Origin: Octopus vulgaris
Taxonomy: Eukaryota
Direction: 5' to 3'
DNA: 64,000 nucleotides
Assembly: GCA_951406725.2 (NCBI GenBank)
Contig: OX597835.1
Span: forward strand, 9,982,001-10,046,000
Below, in pieces: positions 38,134-39,571 of the stretch. Numbering within the stretch: position 1 is the stretch's first letter; every line of letters starts with the position of its first letter. The notes below the pieces were generated by a model. The model worked only from the letters and a program-made list of their open reading frames with translations. It ran no database searches and was not told the origin of the DNA. Both the position numbers and the translations under genes were made by a program.

Positions 38134-39571
38134 ATCCAGAAGTGTGGTGGAGACATCGGTGTGGAATTTGAGATTACCAAATGCTCAGTACTTAATATGA
38201 AAAGAGGGAAACGAGCGTTCTGCAGAGGATTGCGGTTACCATCAAGAGAGACCATGAGTGAATCCGACGGTAGTGGGATAAATATTTAGGGACTTTGGAG
38301 CTGGATGAGAAATGAAAGTCAGGGTCAGCGAGGTGTATCAAAAAAATGCTGAAGATGGTGTTGAAGTCCTACCTGAATGCCAAAAATTTGATCACCGCAA
38401 TGAATATCTGGGCAGTTGCGGTGGTCACATATAGTGCGTCCATCTTTAAATTGACTAAGGAGGAAATACCTTTTTCTTTACTGCCCACAAGGGGCTACAC
38501 ACAGATGGGGACAAACAAGGAAAGACAAACGGATTAAGTCGATTACATCGACCCCAGTGCGTAAGTGGTACTTATTTAATCGACCCCGAAAGGATGAAAG
38601 GCAAAGTCGACCTCGGCGGAATTTGAACTCAGGACGTAAAGAGGAAATACCAACACTGGACAGAAGGACGAGACATTTGATGATGCTGCATGGGGCGCCA
38701 CACCCTAAAGCAAACGTAAACAGACTGTATATGAAAAGAAAGTATGGTGGCAGAGGACTAATTAGTATAGACCATTGTATAAGGAGTGAAAGGAGAACAC
38801 TTGCCGAGTATTTGATAAATAGTGATGAAGACCTGCTGCAATATGCCGCGAAGGAGATGGATGTAGATGAAAATGAAATGATGGGCAGGGAAGAGTTTAA
38901 CCAAAGAGCTGAGGAGAAGAGGATAGAAGAGCTTCTTGAAATGAGAATGCATGGACAGTTTGAAAGGAATACACAGGACGTTAAGGATAATAGAGCATCG
39001 TGGGCATGGCTTGAGCGAGGTGATTTGAAGCGTACCACCGAAAGCCTGACCATTGCTGCATATGATCGGGCGGCTCTCGCCACTAAGTCAGTGAAGTATA
39101 ACATCTATAAAACTTCTGACACCCAGAAATGCAGACTCTGTGGAAAGAGTGTGGAAAATGTGGCCTACTTGGCAAGTGGATGTGAGAGACTTGCACAAAA
39201 AGTAGACAAGATCATACTGTCAGGTCATCGATGTAGCCATACCAAATGACATGAATGTTGTGAGTAGAGAGATGGAAAAGGTCACCAAGTACTCCGAAAT
39301 GAAACTGGAAATGGCAAGACTGTATGGAATGCGAGAGGGTAATCTAAAAGTGATACCAGTGGTGATCGGAGCGTTGGGCTCAATCCCATTGAAACTTCAA
39401 GACTTCTTAAGGCAATTGGAAATCCGATGCAAGATTGATGTCTTGCAAAAATCAGCCTTATTGGGCACAGCACACATCTTAAGGAAAGTATTATCTGTCT
39501 GAGGTCCTTGTTGTGACATGACAGATGACTAAAGACTCCGGGGCATTTTTACCTGCACTGTGTTACGAAGG
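38134..39571 (+). mobile_element. Dong/R4-clade non-LTR retrotransposon, 5'-truncated, inside (TAA)n
   Basis: DIGVEFEITKC; HGAPHPKANVNRLYMKRKYGGRGL; MHGQF; CRLC zinc knuckle; RLE motifs IDVAIP, EKVTKY, VIPVVIGALG and LQKSALLGTAHILRKVL; TAA repeats on both sides, the known Dong target. Confidence 0.93.
38471..38640 (-). mobile_element. Headless SINE family C unit inserted in the Dong LINE
   Basis: 11 bp direct repeat gaggaaatacc at 38460-38470 and 38641-38651; removing insert plus one repeat restores KLTKEEIPTLDRRTR. Confidence 0.92.

Follow-up and report, generated by a model that had tools for sequence, protein, structure and literature searches.

Reverse transcription primed internally, at RNA loops with 2–18 nt of complementarity to the target, has been described for tailless retropseudogenes and Alu monomers, which include monomers derived from dimeric Alu RNA and are flanked by duplications (PMC5322556). 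In the cases set out in the part of that paper considered here, insertion is L1-driven, priming takes place at A-rich sites and the tail is lost from the product; L1 primes with as few as four matched bases, according to an excerpt of PMC3649969. The squamate sSat arrays of partial SINEs have units of 70–290 nt, a longer terminal unit and homogeneity within each locus, and either unequal recombination or insertion at the same locus was proposed for them (PMC10702118); the portion of that paper used here describes no dispersed unit at a motif-like target. In the blood clam, TSD-(SINE)n-TSD arrays begin with a full tRNA head, continue with units that are head-truncated at one position and have one outer duplication (PMC11481361). 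Their inner units are also tail-truncated, and the corresponding excerpt gives neither target mimicry nor a priming mechanism. In the R2 model, the second strand is started when the cDNA has paired with the target strand upstream, and the element is site-specific and carries true target sequence (PMC6895275, in part). Non-LTR retrozymes form short tandem units, from dimers to multimers, with duplications, and require a hammerhead, as stated in the excerpted text of PMC7229834.

The locus analysed here is a headless SINE unit within positions 38460–38651 of 64,000 nucleotides of AT-rich, microsatellite-rich eukaryotic DNA from Octopus vulgaris (the window). It resembles the Alu monomers in its flanking duplication and, under the mechanism proposed below, in loop priming by target–RNA complementarity and in the derivation of a monomer from a dimer transcript. 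It differs from them in that the site is not A-rich, the tail is kept, the head is lost and one motif serves both ends. As in R2, pairing of the cDNA with the upstream target strand would start the second strand, whereas the likeness to the target is here incidental and absent at most insertions. In contrast to the retrozymes, no hammerhead was found and the head appears to be of polymerase III type. A literature search over the text of open papers found neither this seam nor a target of this kind described. The excerpts of two octopus repeat papers (PMC13282606 and PMC9115989) describe no SINE multimers, and the SINE family was not matched to a name from the parts of PMC5804259 and PMC4758252 that were compared.

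The headless unit, its duplication and the host LINE

The insert (38471–38640, minus strand) is 170 bp long and consists of the SINE body and tail, with a B-box-like motif (38628–38618), a central domain and the tail; the head, including the A box, is missing. The B-box-like and other box labels were read by eye against the promoter consensus. The insert is 0.91–0.93 identical to five other dispersed units. It is flanked by an 11-mer that follows the SINE tail (38460–38470, minus) and recurs on the 5′ side of the insert (38641–38651, minus), and this 11-mer was found exactly twice on the plus strand of the whole window. On the SINE strand the duplication reads GGTATTTCCTC and the corresponding internal motif, at which SINE units join, reads GGTATTTCGTC in the 59726 copy, so that 10 of the 11 letters agree. 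The preliminary description had reported a headless SINE unit within such a duplication, and this is borne out. It placed the start of the insert about 5 nt downstream of the motif; by alignment the distance is 4 nt past the 11-nt motif. Its statement that array units begin at the motif also stands: the first 8 motif letters open all 25 headless units of the array described below, as well as unit 2 of the dimer at 10842.

The host of the insertion is a dead, 5′-truncated non-LTR retrotransposon with frameshifts (38136–39571, plus strand), flanked by (AAT)n tracts on both sides. Six proteins match it at 42–50% identity, five of them with a recorded Pfam RT domain, and two protein searches returned 6 and 13 relatives at 36–54% identity, with no close LINE allele among them. 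Homologues have RT followed by zf-RVT. As RT followed by a CCHC and restriction-like nuclease region, together with insertion in (TAA)n, characterizes R4/Dong-type LINEs, the host may be R4/Dong-like. When the two sides of the insertion were aligned separately to the six homologues, the LINE frame ran on across the site and the two sides overlapped exactly at the duplicated codons. Other copies of the LINE displayed the empty site in all four read runs, as a joint 38459 → 38641 that skips 181 letters (3, 5 and 8 contigs and 3 RNA reads in the respective runs); among the pieces listed for these runs, none spanned the filled site. Because the LINE sides overlap exactly at the duplicated codons and other copies skip 181 letters, the 11-bp repeat is a true target duplication.

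At position 38650 another letter is present in 71%, 75%, 82% and 67% of the depth in the four runs, so the LINE copy that was hit carries the minority form. The minority letter is present in both copies of the duplication and completes the 8-letter match to the motif; as a single draw at about 0.2–0.3, this point is weak when taken alone. All other sites in the host LINE have at least 3 mismatches to the motif, and the SINE tail has one 9-nt match (E 0.19) to this LINE, the only one compared.

The likeness between target and SINE is not confined to the duplication. On the tail side, just beyond the 3′ end of the insert, it continues into the LINE, where 11 of 12 letters agree with the motif that follows a tail in multimers, as judged against the 57324 copy. 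If the register on the 5′ side is moved by 4 nt, which is as long as an internal repeat of the variant concerned, there are 6 of 8 matches to a headed, 3′-truncated copy (9210–9375, minus) whose post-motif letters match the start of the insert. The nick could have fallen anywhere within the 8 letters that are common to target and RNA. The sole mismatch of the motif, at position 9, has the target's letter in both duplication copies and the SINE letter in neither, which fits a staggered cut better, with one letter as the evidence.

This position also bears on an origin without RNA. A broken end of the LINE would, at the motif, have invaded a genomic multimer of the SINE or a one-unit DNA circle that had been excised, and would have rejoined at the next motif after copying a single unit. 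Templated repair would be expected to leave homology at either end and an insert close to one period in length, multimer donors are common, and DNA circles that are LINE-derived or contain repeats exist, as reported in the excerpted part of PMC3510499. But if a circle had integrated by single crossover, or a blunt break had been repaired, one of the copies should be SINE-type at position 9; both are target-type, which disfavours these routes. The insert moreover contains none (0/8) of the letters private to the nearby array. We regard such repair as distinctly unlikely. The array itself is ruled out as the donor of the insert by the absence of its private variants.

SINE copies, arrays and multimer junctions

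The window contains six SINE insertions with intact tails. Besides the 38460 insert these are a dimer (10842–11248, minus), an array (48870–53750, minus) and three headed monomers. The dimer is formed by a headed and a headless unit that meet at a seam (11016/11015), with a 10-bp duplication around the whole, and the array by 1 headed and 25 headless units with a period of about 186, the same seam and 8 private variants. The monomer at 19091–19322 (plus strand, within 19071–19335) has a 13-bp duplication starting with GGTA and 7 extra nt on its 5′ side. These seven letters (19084–19090) lie between the upstream duplication and the head and may be untemplated or derived from the flank of a source. 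The monomer at 59726–59958 (minus), whose head is predicted to form a long hairpin, has a 6-bp AT-rich duplication, and that at 62936–63168 (plus) lies within a TA tract; neither has a motif match. Clear duplications, of 6, 10, 11 and 13 bp, were identified at four of the six insertions, and the other two are ambiguous. Sister subfamilies with the same head and central domain and other tails are present at 18210–18339, 44114–44331 and 57277–57494. Their duplications, of about 15–18 bp, overlap tail letters, and in three copies (18259, 57324 and 44113) begin in AT-rich, tail-like letters.

ARAGORN predicted 0 tRNA genes in the window, and no Rfam tRNA match to the SINE was obtained there. Scans with a sequence pattern found 1 match in viral and 9 in metagenome sequences, each a chance 20–22-mer without the SINE body; a second pattern had 0 matches in genome and viral contigs, and a plasmid scan likewise 0.

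Two further repeat types were recorded in the window. A 400-bp repeat pair (9376–9776 and 48196–48596) is 96% identical, and the 9210 SINE abuts one end of it; the repeat ends are reminiscent of non-autonomous Helitron-like elements. Another SINE family, with a length of ~390 bp, is represented at 9998–10384, 24904–25283, 29475–29863, 60491–60683, 2299–2481 and 22973–23276. Its copies at 60491 and 2299 are headless, with internal starting points that almost coincide; one copy lies in a TG tract and the other behind a different 5′ part.

The array is homogeneous, its headless units having a mean identity of 0.974 (300 pairs) versus 0.923 among the dispersed units (15 pairs). Eight private columns are found in 24–25 of the 25 units and in none of the six dispersed units, and 5 of the 8 are also present in the headed unit of the array. 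Units 4, 14, 20 and 23 carry one common block of variants, which suggests duplication of multi-unit blocks within the array. In the array units the tail has become a run of A whose length varies. With 25 homogeneous partial-SINE units, where at least 4 define a SINE-derived satellite, and a longer terminal unit, the array belongs to this class. Such homogeneity is as expected from a clonal array that was probably amplified locally at the DNA level. Because its units have the 8 private variants in common, it would not have arisen by repeated self-insertion, and the suggestion in the preliminary description that the SINE builds arrays by being its own target is not supported for this array. Seams can also spread by descent, since the dimer at 10842 has one duplication around both units.

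Junctions between tail and motif are common in this SINE family in both DNA and RNA reads. In the DNA runs, by a rough estimate, about 8–14% of tail depth continues into the motif, and four tail-to-motif RNA joints together account for roughly 19% of tail depth among the joints listed. The best supported of the joints listed is an RNA go-back joint from body to tail (38642 → 38473), with 555 reads and 121 starts. The variant found in the insert itself follows a tail in all four runs (joint 38642 → 38463). By arithmetic, joint sizes of 170, 177 and 180 would correspond to the 185-nt period once letters absent from the window are added. An interpretation of the 177 and 180 joints as deleted seam variants was dropped, as they equal the normal period with letters that the window lacks. 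Joints at 38643, which might reflect a natural seam variant with the 4-nt gap, could be gapped alignments. In run X1, rarer seams link the tail to other internal points, one of them near the A box, and the main seam is thus not the sole one.

Across the 25 headless array units, runs of four T are confined to 2 places; with most units lacking such a stop, read-through by polymerase III would be possible. The RNA reads do not prove such read-through, because they cover both strands equally. One abundant transcript could supply most of the RNA joints.

Target sites and the structure of the seam

Only one of 113,718 non-SINE sites matches the motif at 10 or more of 11 letters. Based on composition, the chance of such a match is 7 × 10⁻⁶ per site, or about 4 × 10⁻⁵ for six insertions, and that of an 8/8 match is 1 × 10⁻⁴ for six insertions. 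Coincidence is an unlikely source of the match between target and motif. An ordinary insertion could nevertheless have nicked a motif-like site by chance, with the likeness causing nothing but early closure on the 5′ side. The SINE family is very abundant, a few such windows would be expected in a large genome, and oddities are selected for scrutiny. Set against this are the probabilities just given and a second, weaker match at 19091, and we consider a chance origin highly improbable. It keeps a small share of the probability because the motif was picked after the fact and many windows were scanned.

Outside SINE copies, the sole 10/11 site (48846–48835, minus) is identical to the SINE motif region over 12 nt. 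It lies 25 nt beyond the 3′ end of the array on the same strand, and its surrounding letters are not SINE.

A further reading holds that the endonuclease of a partner element prefers GGTA(TTTC)-like sites, so that the SINE was its own target and founded the dimer seam, that the LINE offered a look-alike, and that the head was lost by microhomology on the 5′ side. Duplications starting with GGTA, expected at about 0.2–0.3% of sites, are present at two of the six tail-intact insertions (38460 and 19091), the tip of an imperfect palindrome, which could be extruded from the DNA, coincides with the seam, and the window's only other 10/11 site is the one next to the array. But the 10842, 59726, 62935 and array insertions start otherwise, the motif match being absent from these four of the six, and the three sister-subfamily copies start in AT-rich letters. 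Recurring seams, moreover, can be inherited, given the clonality of the array and the single duplication around the dimer, and a match that tracks the RNA over 11 of 12 letters is left unexplained. We judge this reading fairly unlikely. The GGTA start at 19091 gives modest support to a link between target and motif, and nuclease preference and priming fit it alike.

With GGTA starting two of the six insertions, a fixed target sequence of the kind used by site-specific retroelements was not found. The preference for GGTA(TTTC) that the preliminary description had offered is weakly supported at most, GGTA being present at two insertions and a strict preference lacking support. That description was correct in noting that the 19091 duplication starts with GGTA, and in assigning other duplications to the copies at 10842 (10 bp) and 59726 (6 bp and AT-rich), neither of which has a GGTA start.

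The SINE head is predicted to fold as a rod rather than a cloverleaf. A hairpin was predicted in all five heads folded (z = −4.4, −4.1, −2.8, −2.1 and −1.4), and the consensus fold of 8 heads contains 32 pairs, 6 of them with two-sided change. The 3′ edge of the apical loop, as predicted, is where the motif starts, and the last five letters of the tail are identical to the 5′ arm of the hairpin. Across the seam, tail and motif are predicted to pair around a 4-nt loop, with the first three motif letters in the loop and the next five paired. By mimicking the hairpin arm, the tail may place the seam at this point through a template jump or end joining.

The same structures are compatible with a one-unit circular or end-joined RNA as template, cleaved in the apical loop of the head, closed by pairing of the tail, and copied for one round here and for several elsewhere. 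The seam falls at the 3′ edge of the predicted loop in 5/5 heads, and the headless unit of the dimer is predicted to pair its tail with the motif, which would bring the ends together. But an array unit folded as linear RNA did not form this pairing, and linear multimer RNA accounts for the locus without a circle. No Rfam family reached threshold in the window, the only match with E < 1 in the search with the dimer was an unrelated 26 nt, and no hammerhead core was identified on either strand of the dimer or the array. A circular template is very unlikely in our estimation. The hammerhead ribozyme was rejected as a candidate on the basis of the missing core and the Rfam result.

Proposed mechanism and its meaning for the SINE family

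The duplication, the empty site, the motif match, the abundance of tail-to-motif seams and the scarcity of four-T stops among the units are directly observed. From these we propose, with slightly better than even confidence, that the insert is a product of target-primed reverse transcription: the nicked target would have paired with the seam of an RNA read through into a dimer or multimer, and the insertion would have been closed at the same motif. One clear locus (38460) and one weak case (19091) underlie this reading. The protein of a partner LINE would nick a LINE copy within the first 8 motif letters, and the freed end would anneal, over 11 of 12 letters, to the motif with which the next unit of the RNA begins, directly after a tail. 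Reverse transcription would then copy one unit. At the motif of the upstream unit, the cDNA would anneal to the other target strand in a register offset by the length of the 4-nt internal repeat, where 6 of 8 letters match the 9210 copy, and the head and 4 nt would be dropped. The absence of a head would thus follow from the likeness of the target to the motif. The 19091 monomer may have taken the same route with only four matching letters and without early closure.

We count the duplications that begin in tail-like letters at 18259, 57324 and 44113 in favour of base-paired priming. On the other side, the predicted pairing of five motif letters with the tail in multimer RNA would hinder priming, the loss of 4 nt would require either another register or a subsequent deletion, and four of the six tail-intact insertions are without a motif match. 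The preliminary description had allowed for a circular or multimeric unit primed by microhomology; the multimer is the better supported part of that proposal, and position 9 disfavours a circle integrated by single crossover. The locus is a new combination of known steps, with one motif serving both priming and closure.

Taken as a single locus, the 38460 insert would exemplify internal priming combined with microhomology on the 5′ side, and nothing points to a host function. A broader possibility, which we consider unlikely, is that the family has a built-in switch to multimers, in which the tail mimics the arm of the head hairpin, RNA ends join at its tip, and the resulting multimers or circles home by base pairing. 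If so, a template jump or ligation would join the ends into multimers or one-unit circles, and these would home to any seam-like DNA, including every SINE copy in the genome. One unit would be added per event, and satellites would be seeded without a site-specific nuclease or a ribozyme.

The squamate and bivalve studies, as far as the excerpts cited above extend, do not settle how SINE tandem arrays with a fixed internal boundary originate. If headless copies throughout the genome are found to sit at seam-like targets, base pairing of read-through RNA would steer insertion and copy the boundary to new loci.
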